Source of the DNA: Hydrolagus affinis
Lineage: Eukaryota
Assembly (NCBI GenBank): GCA_012026655.1
Contig: JAAILG010000882.1
Coordinates: forward strand, 1-64,000
Direction of reading: 5' to 3'
DNA length: 64,000 nucleotides
Positions 54,951 to 64,000 of the stretch are shown one piece after another; within the stretch, counting starts at the first letter, position 1; every line of letters begins with the position of its first letter. The notes below the pieces were generated by a model, which saw only the letters and a program-made list of their open reading frames with translations, did not search any database and was not told the origin of the DNA. A program made the position numbers and the translations under genes.

Positions 54951-55075
54951 GTCCATGGAAATGCAGGAACTAGCAAGTCCGCACAATCGAGTGAGCAGTA
55001 GTGATACCTCTGCTGGCTCCAAACTGGAAAAGGCCAACCTCAGTAGCACTTCAATCATATCAAATGGAACAGCGG
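54951..55075 (+). CDS. EYA4: EYA4 coding exon (125 nt; [42 protein letters not shown]), equivalent of mammalian exon 4
   Basis: Acceptor TTCCTCTCCTGGCAG| and donor CGG|GTGAGT. Matches recalled EYA4 SMEMQDLASPH...SKLEKSNLSSTSVTTNGT better than EYA1. Confidence 0.96.
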
Positions 55076-56194
55076 GTGAGTTATGGAAAGTGGCTTTCCC
55101 AACATTTCTCCCTTTTGCTTGCATTGTCTAGTGCTTCTTTTCAACGTCCTTTGCTATTTCCGGTTTTCTTTTCATGAGAATAACAAAGAAATAGGGGGGG
55201 AAATTTTCACCCACTTCCTCTGTTCAGAGATGTATGTATTCATGTACTTCGTGGGTGGTTGAATGTAAAGTGTAGGAGACGTCAGCTTTTTGTTTTAGAC
55301 GCTTCCAAGTACACGAGGTGAGGGAAACACATTTCTCAGTCTCCAGCTCAACTTACACATATCCAAAAATGGATAGAATTGTACAAATAAGCCATGGTTG
55401 CAAAAGTGTTTACAGTGTATTAATGTCTTATATAATTTCTCCCATAACATTATTTATTCCAGAATATACTGCCACAATGTATATTTCTATAGTTACGACT
55501 TTCTGTTGATGGTAGTGGCAGTAGTTCTGTTTGAAGCATTGCAGCTATAAACTAAAGCATGACCTTTGACAACCTCTACAAGTTTGGAAATGTTCTCCTA
55601 CTATTAAAGGAAAACCACACAGCCGTAAAGGTAAGATAATGGGAGTGCTGTTGGTTACCGCTGATATTTGACTGTATGAGTTGGGTGTTTTTCTACACTT
55701 TTAACTGGTTTGATTTTTCCTCCCCGTTTAATTCTCTACATATAAACTTTTACTTGTGTGTATAAACAAATGTATATTAGTCATCATCAAGCATAAAGAA
55801 TTTGCTTTGTTTCTACATATGGATCGTGCTACGTTTGAATCATTTCATTATTTGGTGTCTCGTGCGAGGAAGGCTCTCCTCTCTCTCCATATATACCCAG
55901 AATTTTTTCCTGAAATATAGACATTTACCTGTGTTGTGTTTCCTATTACAATGTCTGTTTTGGATTTGAAAGCAAGACTGTTAAACTATGAAAACTGTAC
56001 CTATGTTAGGTTATACCCATGTTGATGAGGTAGATGGACAATCTGAATATACTTCAAACTTTTCCTTGTAATGATTGTTCCTATTCCATACTTCCTATTC
56101 CCCTGTTTGCTTCCAATAAACAATAGGGTGTTGCTGTGGGACCTATTGGCCTAGAGAATAGACTGAGACAATGTTCATGTTCCTCACCAACATT

Positions 56195-56330
56195 CAACAA
56201 CAACAACAAATTGCACTTATAGAGCGCCTTTCACGTCGGGAGGACGTCCCAAGGCGCTGCACAGGAGGCATGTGACCCGAGCTGGGAGCGGAGTGTTTGG
56301 GAAGGGGTAAGAAACGTAGGGGAGGTCGAA
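56195..56330 (-). mobile_element. Young short L2 3' end
   Basis: (CAA)n then GAGCGCCTTTCACGTCGGGAGGACGTCCCAAGGCGCTG, with CpGs intact. Confidence 0.85.
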
Positions 56331-56589
56331 GAATTCAGTGACACCTCCTCTAACCCACTGGAAAATGCTTACTTGTGGGCATTGGATGATAACAAGATTG
56401 GTCTAGAATGTTGTGTCTCCTACGTATAGATTGGGTATCACTGTCTTGGCTCAGACATGAAGTATGACCATTTGGGCAAGCTACCAAAGGGCAGCCAGGA
56501 ACCATCGATCATTGCAAAAGTAAAGAAGTGATGGTGAATATTTTTGAGACATTTGTTAGGCTGTAAATGGAATATTGTGTGTAGTTTGG

Positions 56590-57085
56590 GATTCTGCATC
56601 AGAGAAAGAATATTAAAACTATGGGAAATGTACAACTTGGGTTCATGAAGATGATACCAGAAATTAATGGGTACAGCTTTGAGGAGAGGCTAGAGTGTTT
56701 AGGATTCGTTCAGTTGGAGTAGTGGAGATTGAGAGGTGATAATGATAGAGTTGTTGAAGAGATTTCAAATAATTAATTGTGGAAAGCTCTTCCTGCTGGT
56801 GAACGATTTGAGGAAATGAGGGAACAGATTCAAAATTGTGACTAGGGGAGTGAAAGAAGAGGTTTTCGAAGAACGTTTCCCACAAAGTCGTTGGAAGTAT
56901 TTACCACAGGTGACTAAGAATAGACATTGGGGACATTTCGAAGATTATTGGAAATGCACGCATAGGAAAGATATGTGGGGAAAGAGCAAGGTTTTAGGAT
57001 GGATGGTTTCTTTGAGTAGCAAACACCAACATAAAAAGGTGATCCAAAGGTCTCCTATTCTGTCATACACTTATATGGATGTATA
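56590..57085 (+). mobile_element. Old CR1 3' fragment
   Basis: AAGATGATACCAGAA..CAGCTTTGAGGAGAGGCTAGA..GAGATTGAGAGGTGAT (ERL..LRGD region), then a 3'UTR-like AAAGGTCTCCTATTCTGT. Confidence 0.7.
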
Positions 57086-60000
57086 ATCCAGCGAAAAGTC
57101 AAATGAGCAGAAAGTGAAAGAAATCTGGCTGAAAATGACCAATGCTGGCCCCTACAAGATGCATTATTATTCCGCACATCCATTCATGCAAATCACACCT
57201 AGGTGTATAGTTTAATTTGCATGAGTTTCACTTTGGCTCCCAATATCACATGCATCAAATTGAATGCTGCAAATAGGAGTTTATTGTCGCCTAAATCTAC
57301 TTGCCATTACTGACCGATAGTTAATTCTGTCTTATTTCAGTGTTTATCCAGAAAGACATGTGCATGGGAGACAAATAAATGCTTTCCTGTCTAAAGACCT
57401 GTGCTCTGACCCATATAGAGGAGTTTCCAACACTTCTTTCAGTACTGAAAGAAGAATCAGATTGTGAAGTAACTCCCATGGGAATGTTGTATTGTCTGTG
57501 TCGTTTATCAAAGGATGGGAACATCTGTCTGGAAAAGAGGCACCTAGACCTCAAATCATATATTTTATTGTTTGCAACAATGCAAAATCCTCCTTTTTTT
57601 GTGTAGGAGTATGTTGAAGGAAAACTTTCATTTATTTGTTTCCTTAATCAAAGATATCCCCTGTGCCATTTGTTCTCTTTTCTGATTTTTCTTTTGAAGG
57701 TAAAGTGAATATTAGGAAAAAAGGGGGATGTTTGGACTTTATGGTTTTGTTCTGACCTTGTTTATCTGGGATGTTATAGAAATGTTTCGCTCACAAATAT
57801 ACTGGACAGTCAATTCACTTCACAGTATATTCTTTGAGACATCGATAAGATGTGAAAAGCGCAATATCAAATACAAGTATAATATTATATTTATTATATT
57901 ATAAATGTTTCAGAAATCATTGTAAGTTGAATTCCAAACTCATCACTTCCTAGACTTGAAAAACTTCCTATAGACACATCCCTTTGACCTTGTCCTTGGT
58001 CAATATGTTTAAATTTGTCATTGCCTTATCCACTGTGCACCATACCATGTTTATCAAGCACAATAAAATGTTCTTTCACCTGAAAACGTGCTCTATAAAT
58101 GCAAGTTGAACTTATGTTTTAAAGGTTGTCTGGAACACATAGTCCAAGAACCCACAACAAATAGTAAAAAGAAGCTCAAACTCGATATGGAACCATCTTG
58201 AGTTTTTATACTGTTTATAAGGTTCCAACTTCACATGCAATTCATTTTGATTCCAATCTTTCAACTCACTTTCTGTTCTCTGTTTTTCTGTGCATTGTCA
58301 ATTGTGCAAATTAATCATCTTGTAGGAAATAAAATTGTGCTTCTTTTCTACCAAGCTCGCATTTTTCTATATCTAAATTCGGACTCTAAAATGAGTGACC
58401 ATGTAAAAAAGTTATTATTTAGCACATTTTTTTTATAATGACTATGTACAGTCTGTACTAGGTCTTCGGGGATGAAGTCGACCTAAGTCTACCAGAAATT
58501 TTGTGCCTACGGCAAAACCTTGAAGCTGACATTATTTAATATTGTGACATAAGAATTTGTACCATTTTTCTTTAGAACATCATGTGTGATTCCAGTCCCC
58601 ACTTTTTCCTCTAAACCACTCTGATTTCAGATATTGTATATAATTTCTATTTTACTGAATCTATTTATTCTCCTCACTCTAGTTTGAAGCTGATCCCTTT
58701 TCTACTGTCTCAACATTTCTGTGTTTGAGTTTTCCTTCAACTTTAATCCTTCTGTGTTTATTTGCACATCTGTGCCTGCTTTTTGTATTGTTTATCTCCA
58801 GTTTTTCCATGCACACTTACACTCTCTCTGTTTGTCTCTCACCCATGTTTCATGTTCACTTTACCTGTTGTGTCTTTAAGGTCTCTTTTTGTGATGCACG
58901 GAAAAGAGTAAATTTAGAAGTGGGAAAACTCCTTCATAAATTAAAATTCCTTCTACTGTTTTAAATCGATAGTGATGCTCTTTCCATTAGTTGATGGATA
59001 CATCTGTCTTATGTTAGTACTTACTGAAGTAAGTACTTTATCTTTTATATTTTACAATACACAATGCAAATTACATTTACATTATCAAACTTACTTGTCA
59101 AGTATATCTCAAAGCTTTTTTGAGAGGAAAGCAAGAATTTGGTCGACTTGATGTGTAATAGAGGACTGTGATTTATGGGGTTTAATTCTGTTTTCCTTTT
59201 TGTTTAATGTTTGTTTACTTTTGACTCCAGAGGTCATTCTAATTTCCTGTTCTGATGTTGTGAATGGAGCAAAGAAGCATTCCCACTATCCTTTGCTCTC
59301 TGGACATGGAGCAGCTAGGAATGTCATACCAACTGATTTGTACTACAACTTATATGTACCTCATGTCATGCATAATTTATCCCGAGACCAAACCTGTTCT
59401 GATTTGACTGAGAAGTAAAGCAGAACTGCTGTACACTTTATTACACAGATTTTGGGAGTAATATATACTCAGGTACCAAAGTAAAAATACCTTATACACT
59501 GATGAATATTGGATTTCTTGCTAATCGTTAGTACTGTGATAGGAAGTAAAAATGTTTTTTGCTATCCAAAATGTGGTGTCTTCCAACTATTTTCTTTCTA
59601 AAATGGTAGAAGGATTATAAAACTTTCGCCGGTGAGACAACGTTTTAACTCATGTTTAAGGTTCTTGTTTCATACAAAGACTCAGCATTTTGCTTGACAA
59701 GTTGCCAAAGGCAGACAGAAATTGTTGCACAAACATTTATTAGATTCACTAAAATGCAACAAGGCCAGAAACTCAGCAGGTGATCAAGCGGAATGTCCTA
59801 CTCTTTTGAAATCAGATTTAGATTTAGTTACAATAATTTCTGCAGCTTATCTAAACCATGTTGAATTATTTCTTTATTTTGTTTTACTTTTTTTTAAATC
59901 TAATGTCACAAATGTACAGGGTAGAAAATAGGAGTTTTAAATAGTACACAGTTACTATTGTTGTTTGTCACTGTTTCTGTCCTGTCATTTCTCATGCAGT

Positions 60001-60107
60001 GTGTTTATTCATTAACTGAATCTTTACTCTTAAAGTTGTAATTGTAATAATTTATAGTTAACCAGTGAGCAGTTTTACCGCAATTTTACATTAAAAGCCA
60101 ACCCATA

Positions 60108-60213
60108 TGAAATAAAAACAAAAGTTGCTGGGGAAACTCAGCAGGTCAAACAGCATCCATGGAGAAAGGAAAAGGAATCAACGTTTCGGGTCTACAACCC
60201 TTCGTCAGGACTG
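60108..60213 (-). mobile_element. Penelope-like retroelement terminal fragment
   Basis: AAAACAAAAGTTGCTGGGGAAACTCAGCAGGTCAAACAGCATCCATGGAGA..AACGTTTCGGGTC..ACCCTTCGTCAG, a pattern I recognise from shark Penelope-type termini. A second copy is at 43545. Confidence 0.65.
60176..60212 (-). ncRNA. Minimal type-I hammerhead ribozyme motif
   Basis: Minus strand AGUC-CUGACGA-A-GGGU(UGUAG)ACCC-GAAA-CGUU-GAUU: complete core, 4-bp stem II, palindromic stem III (AACGUU) and 4-bp stem I. Confidence 0.65.
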
Positions 60214-60332
60214 AAATAGTGAAATAGTTCTTTTCAACATGTGAAATAGTTCTTTTCAAATCCATTTTATTGCTTCCAAGAAAAGAATAGCTTGCAACTG
60301 ACGACATGTGAGACACAATTATAAGATAGATG

Positions 60333-60768
60333 TGTTAACCTGGCTCAGAAGTAGATCTCTTGCTTCTGAGTCAGAAAGTTGTGGGTTCAAGTCCCACAGT
60401 CTAGGTTGTATGTTCAAAGCCTGTAACTTCCACTGTGGAACTAGGGGGGTGCAGTATTGTGAAGAGGGACTTCTTCTGATGAGATGTTAAACTAAGGTCC
60501 CCTCTCACTGTTTAGCAAAAACCATGTTAAAAACCCAATGCCAATAGTTGAAAAGAGAAGGGAGTTTCACCCAGTGTCCAAACCAACAGTCACCTATATG
60601 AAATTTGTCATTTGTGTCATACCTGTTCGTGGGACGTTACTCTGAAGAATTGGACTGCTGTGTTGGACTGCAGTCACTCAATTTCACAGTAAATCCTATG
60701 AAGTGCTGTGGGACATCTTCCCGGTATGTGAAAGGCACCATAACAAATGCAAGGATTATTATTATAAT
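60333..60768 (+). mobile_element. Near full-length family-B Deu SINE
   Basis: TGGCTCAGAAGTAG..TCTGAGTCAGAAAGTTGTGGGTTCAAGTCCC head, Deu core, and GTGAAAGGCACCATAACAAATGCAAGGATTATT tail. Confidence 0.85.
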
Positions 60769-61068
60769 AAAAGAGAAAAGATAATTTGATTGAAACAAAG
60801 CACAGAGTGGAGTCCAGCATTCCAAGAAGTGTGATGTTTGTACTTCAAAAAACTTATTTATTCAAACCAATCCGTTCTGCCAAAAAAGCTATTATTCAAC
60901 CACGAGGCCCTGTTATGGGGACTTAATGTTTACATTACTTTAAAGCATACTTATTTGATGTCTTTGAGCATTTGCGTGCAGGAATCTGAATTACTGTATA
61001 TAAATATATGGCAACTGTCACAAGCAGCATTATTGAAACTGAATGTGATTCTGACTTTTCCTCTTCAG

Positions 61069-61140
61069 GAGACACCTCCATGACTATATTAAACACAGCA
61101 GACTGGTTGCTGGGTTGCAGTACCCCCTCCTCTGCATCAA
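61069..61140 (+). CDS. EYA4: EYA4 coding exon (72 nt, or 69 nt from the distal NAGNAG acceptor; [24 protein letters not shown]), equivalent of mammalian exon 5
   Basis: Acceptor CTGACTTTTCCTCTTCAG| and donor CAA|GTATGA; symmetric phase 1-1. Matches the recalled EYA4-specific [20 protein letters not shown]. Confidence 0.95.
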
Positions 61141-61699
61141 GTATGACAGATTATGGTACAGTGCATGTGTGTGTTAGTGTGAAATATGAGTGCAGTGCCT
61201 TTGTCTTCTTCATACTCTGAATGTTTCTTTTATTAAAGTGTTGTTAAAAAGACAAATAGATTTTAGCATTTGCCTTTGCTATTAACGGAATGTTTATGGA
61301 CTTGATTTGTTTTTGTGTGGAGTGGAACCCGTCGTCATTGTAGTCGCTTAAATGCCATTTTGTTTATTTTTGAAATAAAGTCTTAAGCTACTTCTGTCTT
61401 TTGCTATGTTCCAATTCAACTTTACACAGCTGCAGTAATAACGCTATTCTGCATTTTCCCTTAGTCTAGGAAAATCTGGTTAAAGTACTTTGAGAACAAC
61501 AGCAGTGTAATTCATTTAAATACCCTATGGGTTTGAATAGATTATGTGTACTTTCATAGAAACTTACTAGAAGAATTCAGGAAGTAACAGCTTGTTGGAA
61601 AGTGGGTGAAATGTGGCTCAGGGTAGAAGCACCAAGGTTCATTTTTGTGATTTTCCAAACAATGAAAAGGATTAAATAAGATTGATAAAGTGTATCCAG

Positions 61700-62345
61700 A
61701 ACAACAACAAAATTACATTTGTAAAGCGCCTTTCACGTCGGGAGGCATCCCAAGGCGCTGGACAGTCAGTGGTCAAGACCTGAGCATGGTGGGGTGGGGG
61801 TGCGGGGTGGAGGGGAGGGCAGGGTTGAGATGAGGGAGGGCAGAAAGGAAGGAGGGCTGCTGAAGAGGAGGGTCTTCTTCAAACTACAACAACTTACATT
61901 TATATTTATATCCATACCGGGTCGATTCCCAGAGTGTTTAAAAATGGCAGAGCCCAATGTGGAGGTGGAAGGCAGGCATAGGCATGGTCAAAGAGGAATG
62001 TCTTCAGGCACAACCTAAAAATAGGGAAAGAAGAGGCAAAGCGAGGGATTGAGGGAAGGAGTTCCATAGCTTTGGGGCATAGTGGCTGAAGACATGGCTA
62101 CAGAGAAATGCAGGGGTAGAGTTTTGGATGAGTTGAATTTTGTAAATAGGGGAGGAGGGCTTTTGAGTAGTCTAGCCGAGAGGTGACAAAGGTGTGGATA
62201 AGAGTTTTGGCAACTTGTGTAGTGAAGTACTGTTAGAGACAGGCTATGTAGCGGAGGAGGAGGAAAGTGGTCCTGGTCAAGGACTGGATGTGGGGGAGGA
62301 AGGATAACTGGAAATTGAACCTGATGCTTAAACTGCGCACAGGTT
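61700..62345 (-). mobile_element. L2 3' fragments (two tails, at ~61700 and ~61885, plus a degraded ORF2 end)
   Basis: GCGCCTTTCACGTCGGGAGGCATCCCAAGGCGCTG tail. GGAAGGAGTTCCATAG and GAGGTGACAAAGG..GGATGTGGGG..AACCTGATGC align with 2735-3452. Confidence 0.8.
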
Positions 62346-62349
62346 CAGA

Positions 62350-62640
62350 GTTTTAAGGACAGCTTGGGTAGATTGAGGAGGAGAACAATACATTTTGATG
62401 GACTGCGTCAGTAGAACAAGAGGACGTAGGTCTAGAGTTACAAAAGGCAAATTCCGGACAGACACCAGAATGTTTTTTCTTTACCCAGAGGGTAATTAAT
62501 GATTGGAACAGGTTGTAAGGAAGAGAGATTGAGGTCAGTTGACTGGACTCATTTAAAAAACAACTTGAACTTGTCATGGGAGAATTGTAGGGTGGATGTT
62601 ACAGAGGGATAAGAAGACCTTTTTGATCCGATTAATTTGG
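62350..62640 (+). mobile_element. CR1 ORF2 C-terminal fragment
   Basis: AGAACAAGAGGA (RTRG)...TTCTTTACCCAGAGGGTAATTAATGATTGGAACAGGTTG (FFTQRVINDWNRL). Confidence 0.8.
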
Positions 62641-62711
62641 GGATCAATGAAAAGTTGTCGAGTGAAGTCTGGGTGCTTTCCGACAGAGAGAGGGGAAATC
62701 TGAAGGCCTCA

Positions 62712-62727
62712 TGCCTCCTAGTGGCCA
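62712..62727 (-). promoter_or_regulatory. CTCF-like motif
   Basis: Minus strand TGGCCACTAGGAGGCA, one mismatch to CCASYAGRKGGC. Motif only. Confidence 0.3.
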
Positions 62728-63060
62728 ATCACAGAATATTGTCAGCAGAGGCGATGAACAGGAAGCCTGAACTCCACTAGACAGTAGCTCTATGAATAGA
62801 TGTACAGAGCTCTCCCTGCGTTTCAAAAGCAGGAGTTACCAATGCTGTGTGATAAATGATATGCACCTGAAGAGTTTGGATGGGGTTCCATGTGGTGTCA
62901 CAATCTGAATGAGGGTAAGTCTAGTCCTGGCCTTTGTGTGCCTCGTGTTCCACATTAAGCGTGAAGCAATAATGTGGCAATATACCAGCTGCCATTTATT
63001 TCTCCTATGATAAACAAATGCAGCCATTGCTGACTAGTTTGGAAACCTGAATGGTATGAA

Positions 63061-64000
63061 GAACAACAGCAAAATCACAGTTGCAGAGCAGGTTTCACAT
63101 CGGGAGGACATCCCAAAGCGCTGAACAGTTAAGAGTCAGGACCTGAGTGTGGCAGGTTAGTGGGGTGGGGTGGGGGGCAGGGTTGGGATGAGGAAGGTCA
63201 GAGAAGTAGGGTGTGGCTGAAGGCACGATCGAAAAGGAGGGACTTGAGTCGGTTCTTAAAGGAGGCAAGGGAGGGGTGGGGATGGGGTCAAGGGAGTAGG
63301 TGGTATGTTTCATGGTCAATATAGTGATGATGAGAGAGGAGGAGTAGATAGGTTTGAAAATGTGGTAGAAGGGATGGGTAGAGGTCGGAGTGTGAGGGGG
63401 AGATGGGGAGGGTGTAATGGTTGGGAAGGTAGAGGCAGCTGAAAGGATTCCCTCAATTTTGGACTCAAGAATATCCAACATCTCCTCACAGTCAGAATTT
63501 GAGGAGAGAATAGGTGAGAGTGGGTGGGAGGGTGGGGTGGTGGTGGACAGAGGAACCAGTTGGTGGTGGAGAATAGGAGCCTATGGTTGTACTTCATCTC
63601 CAAGATTATTTTGGGAGTAGAAGGACAATTTGGCGGTGGCGAGGCAGAGCAGTACGTTTTGATGTGGTCCAGCCAGATATGCCAGTGGACTGTTAGGTCA
63701 GAGTTGAGCGTATGGCAGTCCACACCTGATCCTTGAGGGAGCGTAAGTGGCTGGTGTACCAGGGTGAGCTTTCATGAATAGGAGGCAGTTTGAGACGTGA
63801 GGGGGTCAAGGGCATTGTGAGTGGTGGGTATTATTGGAGGAGAGTGAGCGAGGAGGATATATCAGTGCGGGAGGTAGGTCAGAGTGGGAGGAGTTCAGAT
63901 GATTCCAGGGTTGTGGAGAGGGATGGTGGGGAGATATGCTAATGATATGCAATTTATATATCCAGATGTACGAGGGAAAAAGAAATGTCAAATACTTGGA
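63061..64000 (-). mobile_element. Internally deleted L2: 3' tail joined to the ORF2 linker region; continues past the window end
   Basis: Tail TTTCACATCGGGAGGACATCCCAAAGCGCTG. Minus-strand MKHTTYSLDPIPT and HWHIWLDHIKTY..SA motifs belong to the region before the RT. Confidence 0.75.

Follow-up and report, generated by a model that had tools for sequence, protein, structure and literature searches.

A hammerhead motif in an EYA4 intron of Hydrolagus affinis very probably heads a young, likely inert stub of an abundant Penelope-like element

An apparently complete minimal hammerhead ribozyme lies in an intron of EYA4 in Hydrolagus affinis, and it raises the question of where such a motif comes from and whether it serves the gene that hosts it. 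We analyzed it within the window (the whole stretch of 64,000 nucleotides studied here) and against its relatives elsewhere in the genome. The explanation that we hold with high confidence is that the motif heads a young 98-bp stub of an abundant Penelope-like element (PLE), likely made by reverse transcription that started internally and reached the RNA 5' end at the ribozyme, and that it is likely inert at this site.

All elements of a hammerhead were found on the minus strand from 60212 to 60176. They agree one by one with the complete minimal motif and the cut described by an earlier reading of the DNA (the first-pass annotation). The motif as a whole is based on sequence, chance tests and family comparison, and its parts on sequence:
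60176..60212, minus strand: minimal type-I hammerhead motif
60212-60209, minus strand: stem I 5' strand, AGUC
60208-60202, minus strand: core CUGACGA
60201, minus strand: extra A, the unpaired base after A9
60187-60184, minus strand: core GAAA
60183-60182, minus strand: C15.2-G16.2, palindromic stem III without a loop
60181, minus strand: U16.1
60180, minus strand: U17
60179-60176, minus strand: stem I 3' strand, GAUU
60180/60179, minus strand: predicted cut

Stem I of this copy has 4 bp, including one G-U, and the triplet is GUU, with U as H17. The 4 bp annotated for stem II stand, and a fifth, U-G wobble pair closing a 3-nt loop is also possible. A chance motif was ruled out by shuffling: the core pattern had one match in the window and none in 100 dinucleotide shuffles, and a strict paired-stem descriptor one match and none in 200 shuffles. 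Neither the pattern nor the paired descriptor found a partner hammerhead within the 64-kb window, and an Rfam search of 56000-64000 gave no hammerhead match at E<=10. The lowest-energy ViennaRNA fold of the monomer is a non-hammerhead hairpin (z -1.37), and the fold with stems I and II has a probability of 0.4% for the monomer.

The motif forms the head of an insertion with the following parts:
60115..60212, minus strand: solo pLTR stub of a PLE, 98 bp long, made up of the hammerhead and 61 bp more (genomic copies 92-99% identical; alignment to copies; bimodal 3' ends)
60104..60114, minus strand: target-site duplication (TSD), 3' copy, 11 bp with one mismatch to the 5' copy (sequence; empty site)
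60238..60248, minus strand: TSD, 5' copy, 11 bp (sequence)
60213..60237, minus strand: 25-bp filler at the 5' junction (sequence)

The stub carries no tail and ends at the first of the two 3' end sites used by the family. Homology had been thought to end at the ribozyme, which is right for the 5' side and wrong for the downstream side, where 61 bp more reach 60115. Within the 25-bp filler, 19 bp repeat the flank at 60241-60259, and the filler at 60213-60237 was likely templated during repair. An empty site was found in DNA run X3 (organism A), where contig 18 spans both flanks (59898-60114 and 60263-60394), separated there by 21 letters instead of 148; the TSD model would leave 14 letters rather than these 21. 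Organism A is ~9-10% diverged from the window in this intron. The organism of DNA run X2 likely shares the insertion, as judged from a flank contig that runs 23 bases into the element. We call the insertion young, on the letters of the copy itself, because only one private change, a C-to-U in stem I at 60177, departs from the family pattern in its first 49 bases. At 60327-60765 on the plus strand lies another high-copy repeat, unrelated to the first, whose head is tRNA-like and whose tail is ATT-rich. It has a weak Rfam tRNA match at 60341-60397 and is likely a tRNA-derived SINE; it is present in organism A (60263-60394) and therefore older than the stub. The window also shows a strong G skew (0.435) at 62001-64000.

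A genome search with the stub returned 1,882 first-look candidates, and the best 40 of these 1,882, which were scored, showed 94-99% identity besides the self match. A 27-nt tag outside the ribozyme had 5,258 exact genome matches (control 0), which sets the family at a minimum of 5,258 copies, and the core pattern with an open triplet had 2,819 (control 0). The first-pass annotation had inferred a ribozyme-bearing PLE and proposed looking for a linked GIY-YIG and RT ORF. Both are borne out in longer copies, where such an ORF, with RT, Cys-linker and GIY-YIG, ends ~350 nt upstream of the hammerhead on the same strand. In the broken copies, the ORF motifs follow one another on one strand in the order DKG, DVxSLY, GxxMG, YIDD and then YIG, and a CX4CXXC linker lies between RT and EN in 11 of 14 long copies scanned. 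Among four ORF pieces submitted to Pfam, one gave a weak GIY-YIG match (E 0.00019, just under the cut-off) and three were blank; the RT pieces had no match, and their putative RT identity is read from the motifs. All ORF copies were broken, with no intact ORF among the copies examined.

At its 5' end the ORF reaches the same ribozyme again, in the order hammerhead, tail, acceptor-like site, ATG and ORF. The ribozyme thus lies at both ORF ends, and ribozyme plus tail is the pLTR of an EN+ PLE; it is short (98-135 bp). The family shows features expected of EN+ PLEs, namely pLTRs, inverted 5'-truncated partners, an optional 30-40 bp tail and TSDs. Judged by its sequence, the parent is an autonomous-type PLE, probably of the Neptune/Nematis type, as indicated by the linker. 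Of the two sources proposed earlier, a PLE or a small non-autonomous family, the former holds and the latter, as a separate family, does not. In the heads L197-L211, a strong splice-acceptor-like site stands two bases before the likely ATG, ~170 nt after the ribozyme start, and no donor for it was identified in these heads. By analogy with Drosophila Penelope (PMC2377424; here and below, published accounts are cited for the portions covered), the 5' UTR may contain an intron that overlaps the pLTR. One composite insertion recurs with shared flanks on five contigs (L200, L202, L204, L206, L221), so it lies within a duplicated segment or is carried by another repeat.

Conservation among copies was evaluated in 46 ungapped copies. 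Non-CpG core positions differ at 20/414 and non-core positions at 38/1,196 (Fisher p 0.13), in the direction opposite to core-biased conservation, and CpG sites differ at 16-17% in core and non-core alike. Core-biased conservation among genomic copies was rejected on these counts, and the copies decay neutrally after insertion. The first-pass annotation would have taken a lack of preferential core conservation as part of the evidence against the ribozyme. The lack is real, but the test is the wrong one, because genomic copies decay after insertion and only master subfamilies can show selection. Between subfamilies, the core is constant and loop II varies. The C and G of 15.2-16.2 are kept in 38 and 41 of the 46 copies, the rest being mostly CpG decay.

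The GUU triplet had been taken as a weakness of a lone copy; it is instead the family state, with U17 in 46/46 sampled copies. A GUC pattern gave 108 matches (control 61) and the open-triplet pattern 2,819, the two patterns not being identical; these counts and the constant U17 exclude GUU as decay of GUC. GUU is cleaved more slowly than GUC. GUU can be cleaved (PMC3138052). At the innermost position of stem I, the pair reads C-G in 5, U-G in 27, U-A in 11 and C-A in none of 43 copies, with ~1.3 C-A expected by chance (not significant). Pair 10.1-11.1 is G-C or A-U between subfamilies and was built into the search patterns. As pair-preserving covariation, the stem changes between subfamilies are suggestive only. 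An older subfamily (L283-L312, 83 pattern matches) has A-U at 10.1-11.1, U-A as the innermost stem I pair and a different loop II, with the same core and mostly GUU.

The host locus was characterized through its two flanking exons:
54951..55075, plus strand: coding exon of EYA4 on the upstream side of the host intron (98% identical to EYA4 of Callorhinchus milii)
61069..61155, plus strand: alternative EYA4 exon downstream of the host intron (isoform records; sense reads in run X7)

The upstream exon shows 82-93% identity to shark and ray records. The downstream exon is included in 13 of 30 homologous isoform records holding the next exon and absent from 17. This confirms the placement proposed earlier, in an EYA4 intron ~860 bp before an alternative-type exon; the measured distance from the hammerhead is 857 bp. 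The stub is antisense to EYA4, with the hammerhead on the minus strand and the exons on the plus strand. Expression was followed in RNA run X7, one poly(A) single-cell run whose organism code differs from that of the DNA runs and of which 27% of the raw reads were read. The alternative exon was covered by sense-strand reads only, and the unique flank at 59700-60098 had depth 0 on both strands. X7 reads on the stub, on both strands and without an end pile-up, stem from other family copies (96% continue unlike the locus). Antisense transcription at the locus, for which a check in stranded reads had been proposed, was thus not seen in this one run. EYA4 pre-mRNA at the locus would carry just the complement of the ribozyme. 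Because it is alone and antisense to EYA4, the stub is likely an inert passenger in the intron, and a function through closeness to the alternative exon is without support.

Where copies start and stop was analyzed in 95 copies at 90 loci, picked with the tag and hence blind to the ribozyme; they are the first listed tag matches and not a random draw, and some are two arms of one event. Their 3' ends form two clusters, ~24-30 and 57-68 nt after the tag, ~35 nt apart. Of the 5' ends, 43 lie at -2..+5 relative to the opening base of stem I (p about 1e-17 compared with a uniform spread), 24 further upstream, in the 3' UTR, and 28 further in, with a single one near the cut (+31..+35). TSDs of >=11 bp were found in 11 of 14 solo copies tested (control 0/14). 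Genome-wide, patterns that require a position to be preceded by two letters foreign to the family gave 21/4,001 apparent starts at the cut site, compared with 26 and 33 at the control positions +35 and +32, that is, no excess. On inspection, 7 of these 21 still hold ribozyme sequence upstream, and 8, by junction reading, are inverted arms joined through stem I. Genomic copies therefore carry no cleavage footprint, either in the sample (1/95) or genome-wide, where the count is below the controls. In eight inverted pairs joined via stem I (L316, L318, L320, L321, L323, L325, L326, L329), the second arm looks as if it started right at the cut site, with no cleavage involved.

The 5' ends pile at the ribozyme start with none in excess at the cut, and therefore the copied RNA likely starts at the ribozyme and is uncleaved. 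Two observations count against reading the pile as a start site: the 24/95 copies that run upstream imply that read-through templates also exist, and the C found at -1 in 10 copies is unlike the residue of a copied cap. The pile could be a reverse-transcription stop. Just four ORF-bearing heads reach the ribozyme, where they end at 0 to +9; this number is too small to establish that no head continues upstream. In copies linked to the 3' UTR, such as L003 and L116, the sequence surrounding the first A of stem I fits an initiator consensus. Three other readings of the ends were discarded. Splicing of a short first exon to an acceptor at the edge of the ribozyme fails on copies without common upstream sequence; a copied-cap G at the 5' junction is unsupported, the Gs seen mostly belonging to the TSD; and an apparent end pile at -123 is an artefact of one reference copy. 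In a set of composites (L195, L200, L201, L207, L208, L209, L212, L214, L216, L218, L219), the 5' part of the ORF is joined directly to a pLTR. Several of these carry a pair of hammerheads in cis, 300-1,100 bp from each other, and are natural dimer substrates.

The pile admits another account within the same element, in which the cDNA copies stem I, folds back on itself and so leaves a read-through RNA. The 8/21 apparent cut-site starts in which the sequence breaks off at stem I's 5' strand and resumes at its 3' strand speak for such a fold-back stop, as do the inverted partner present in 46/95 copies and the 24/95 copies that pass the site. Against it, the pile reaches as far as +5, a position at which the copy lacks the 5' strand of stem I, its upstream edge is sharp (10 at -1, 0 at -2, 1 at -3), and the available pairing is just 4 bp. 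Composites of ORF 5' part and pLTR moreover restart at the same edge in 6/11 events, as expected for a jump off an RNA end. We consider a fold-back stop rather unlikely as the source of the pile. A self-propagating non-autonomous family, retrozyme or SINE-like and copied from short cleaved or circular RNAs, would account for the excess of short over ORF copies (1,882 first-look candidates vs 194 and 150) and for composites with two hammerheads, and animal retrozymes have been proposed to derive from pLTRs (bioRxiv 10.64898/2026.07.22.740005). It is nonetheless highly improbable: stubs and ORF-linked copies share subfamily letters, ends match internal start sites and not cut sites, composites vary in length, each a one-off, and no head-to-tail array of the 98-135 bp unit occurs among the loci examined.

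Least credible of all is a co-option of the stub to regulate EYA4, whether through a self-cleaving RNA made in antisense or through an effect on splicing of the alternative exon, and we give it hardly any weight. The nearness of that exon would fit it, as would the intact core, a state kept in only 24/46 comparable copies; but the close identity (97-99%) to other copies already explains the core. The insertion is missing from organism A, and exon skipping is on record in sharks, rays and Callorhinchus, so skipping predates the insertion. The empty unique flank in X7 and the lack of a partner hammerhead in the window weigh against co-option as well.

We therefore return to internal-start reverse transcription of a PLE RNA as the preferred origin of the stub. 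End-to-end template jumping is known for retroelement RTs. By analogy with the anole PLE in vitro, the element's protein would have made a nick in the intron and primed from the first of the internal sites, which lies ~100 nt into the RNA. The template would be uncleaved RNA with its 5' end at stem I, probably the transcription start, and an internal promoter as in Drosophila Penelope (PMC2377424) may drive it. The 5' junction would then have been closed by microhomology, with templated filler added in repair. In the parent RNA, cleavage by the hammerhead may, by analogy, be weak and depend on a dimer or on the protein, and jumps from the RNA 5' end to another RNA or cDNA could yield the composites and inverted pairs. 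A broader model of starts and jumps is offered tentatively, and its parts taken jointly fall somewhat short of probable. The hammerhead would be the first 37 nt of the element RNA, overlapping the transcription start, and RT would prime ~100-135 nt inside the RNA, so that most events would be tiny stubs. At the 5' end, RT would jump to another RNA or a sister cDNA, which would build the partial tandems, the composites with two hammerheads, seen as precursors of retrozymes, and the inverted pairs. In this model the GUU hammerhead would leave no cleavage footprint and might act as a structural or decapping switch; it would not be the processing step that defines the copied unit, and the apparent cut-site starts would be largely stem-I fold-back products.

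Comparison with known systems places the motif among the min-HHRs of metazoan PLEs (Cervera and De la Pena 2014, PMC4209133). It shares with these the following sequence features, with self-cleavage predicted: the core CUGANGA/GAAA/NUH, a short helix I of 4-5 bp, an unpaired nucleotide after A9 (between 9 and 10.1), G10.1-C11.1, a palindromic 15.2-16.2 without loop 3, and a location in a PLE pLTR. As in that account, the motifs are mostly single and dispersed, derive from truncated PLEs, include some opposite-strand pairs and reach thousands per genome. They differ in a helix II of 4-5 bp, compared with 6-8 bp in Schistosoma and Drosophila, and in a GUU triplet family-wide. In that work, a min-HHR on its own was inactive, and dimers had weak activity (PMC4209133). 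The main-text portion covered does not name cartilaginous fishes; its supplements may list chondrichthyan motifs. PAc, the Poseidon element of Anolis carolinensis (Frangieh et al. 2024, PMC11167929), likewise has a hammerhead in its pLTR, two internal reverse-transcription start sites bounding an optional tail, and uncleaved RNA as its main template with no ends at the cut site, which for our family is deduced from copies. Its ribozyme is protein-dependent and dispensable for insertion (PMC11167929). Unlike here, the PAc ORF starts inside the hammerhead, whereas our likely ATG lies ~170 nt downstream behind the acceptor-like site; PAc also lacks the Cys linker clade feature, and the pLTR here is short (98-135 bp).

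With the Neptune and Nematis EN+ PLEs (Craig et al. 2021, PMC8557442), the family shares RT followed by a CX2-5CxxC linker and GIY-YIG at the C-terminus, partial tandems, inverted 5'-truncated copies, a 30-40 bp tail and a canonical hammerhead; unlike them, it has no intact ORF among the copies examined. The non-LTR retrozymes of animals, reported in one chondrichthyan, are also non-coding, PLE-pLTR-derived and equipped with a type-I hammerhead (bioRxiv 10.64898/2026.07.22.740005). They differ in consisting of tandem units, each with a complete hammerhead, whereas the window holds one solo copy with a TSD and ends that are not the cut site. The locus does not resemble the domesticated intronic hammerheads of amniotes (HH9/HH10 type) either, which are ultraconserved in orthologous positions and recognized by Rfam: the site is empty in organism A, and there is no Rfam match.

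The motif is thus another member of the PLE hammerhead kind described in 2014, and the locus itself is ordinary. Our literature searches found no publication on a Penelope hammerhead in Callorhinchus or chimaeras (chondrichthyan motifs may appear in the supplements to PMC4209133 and the 2026 preprint), only an irrelevant mention for Penelope hammerhead ribozymes in sharks, and, supplements aside, none on template-jump tandems of Penelope hammerheads or on transcription start and truncated copies. With the site empty in a relative, the insertion is a clean phylogenetic marker for chimaeras. The in vivo role of PLE hammerheads is a standing question (PMC8557442, PMC11167929), and the family is useful here in that thousands of young copies record the start and stop points of cDNA. 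They come with a trap, since the self-complementarity of stem I yields fold-back junctions that resemble cleavage products. The copies themselves indicate that the RNA starts at the ribozyme and stays uncleaved.
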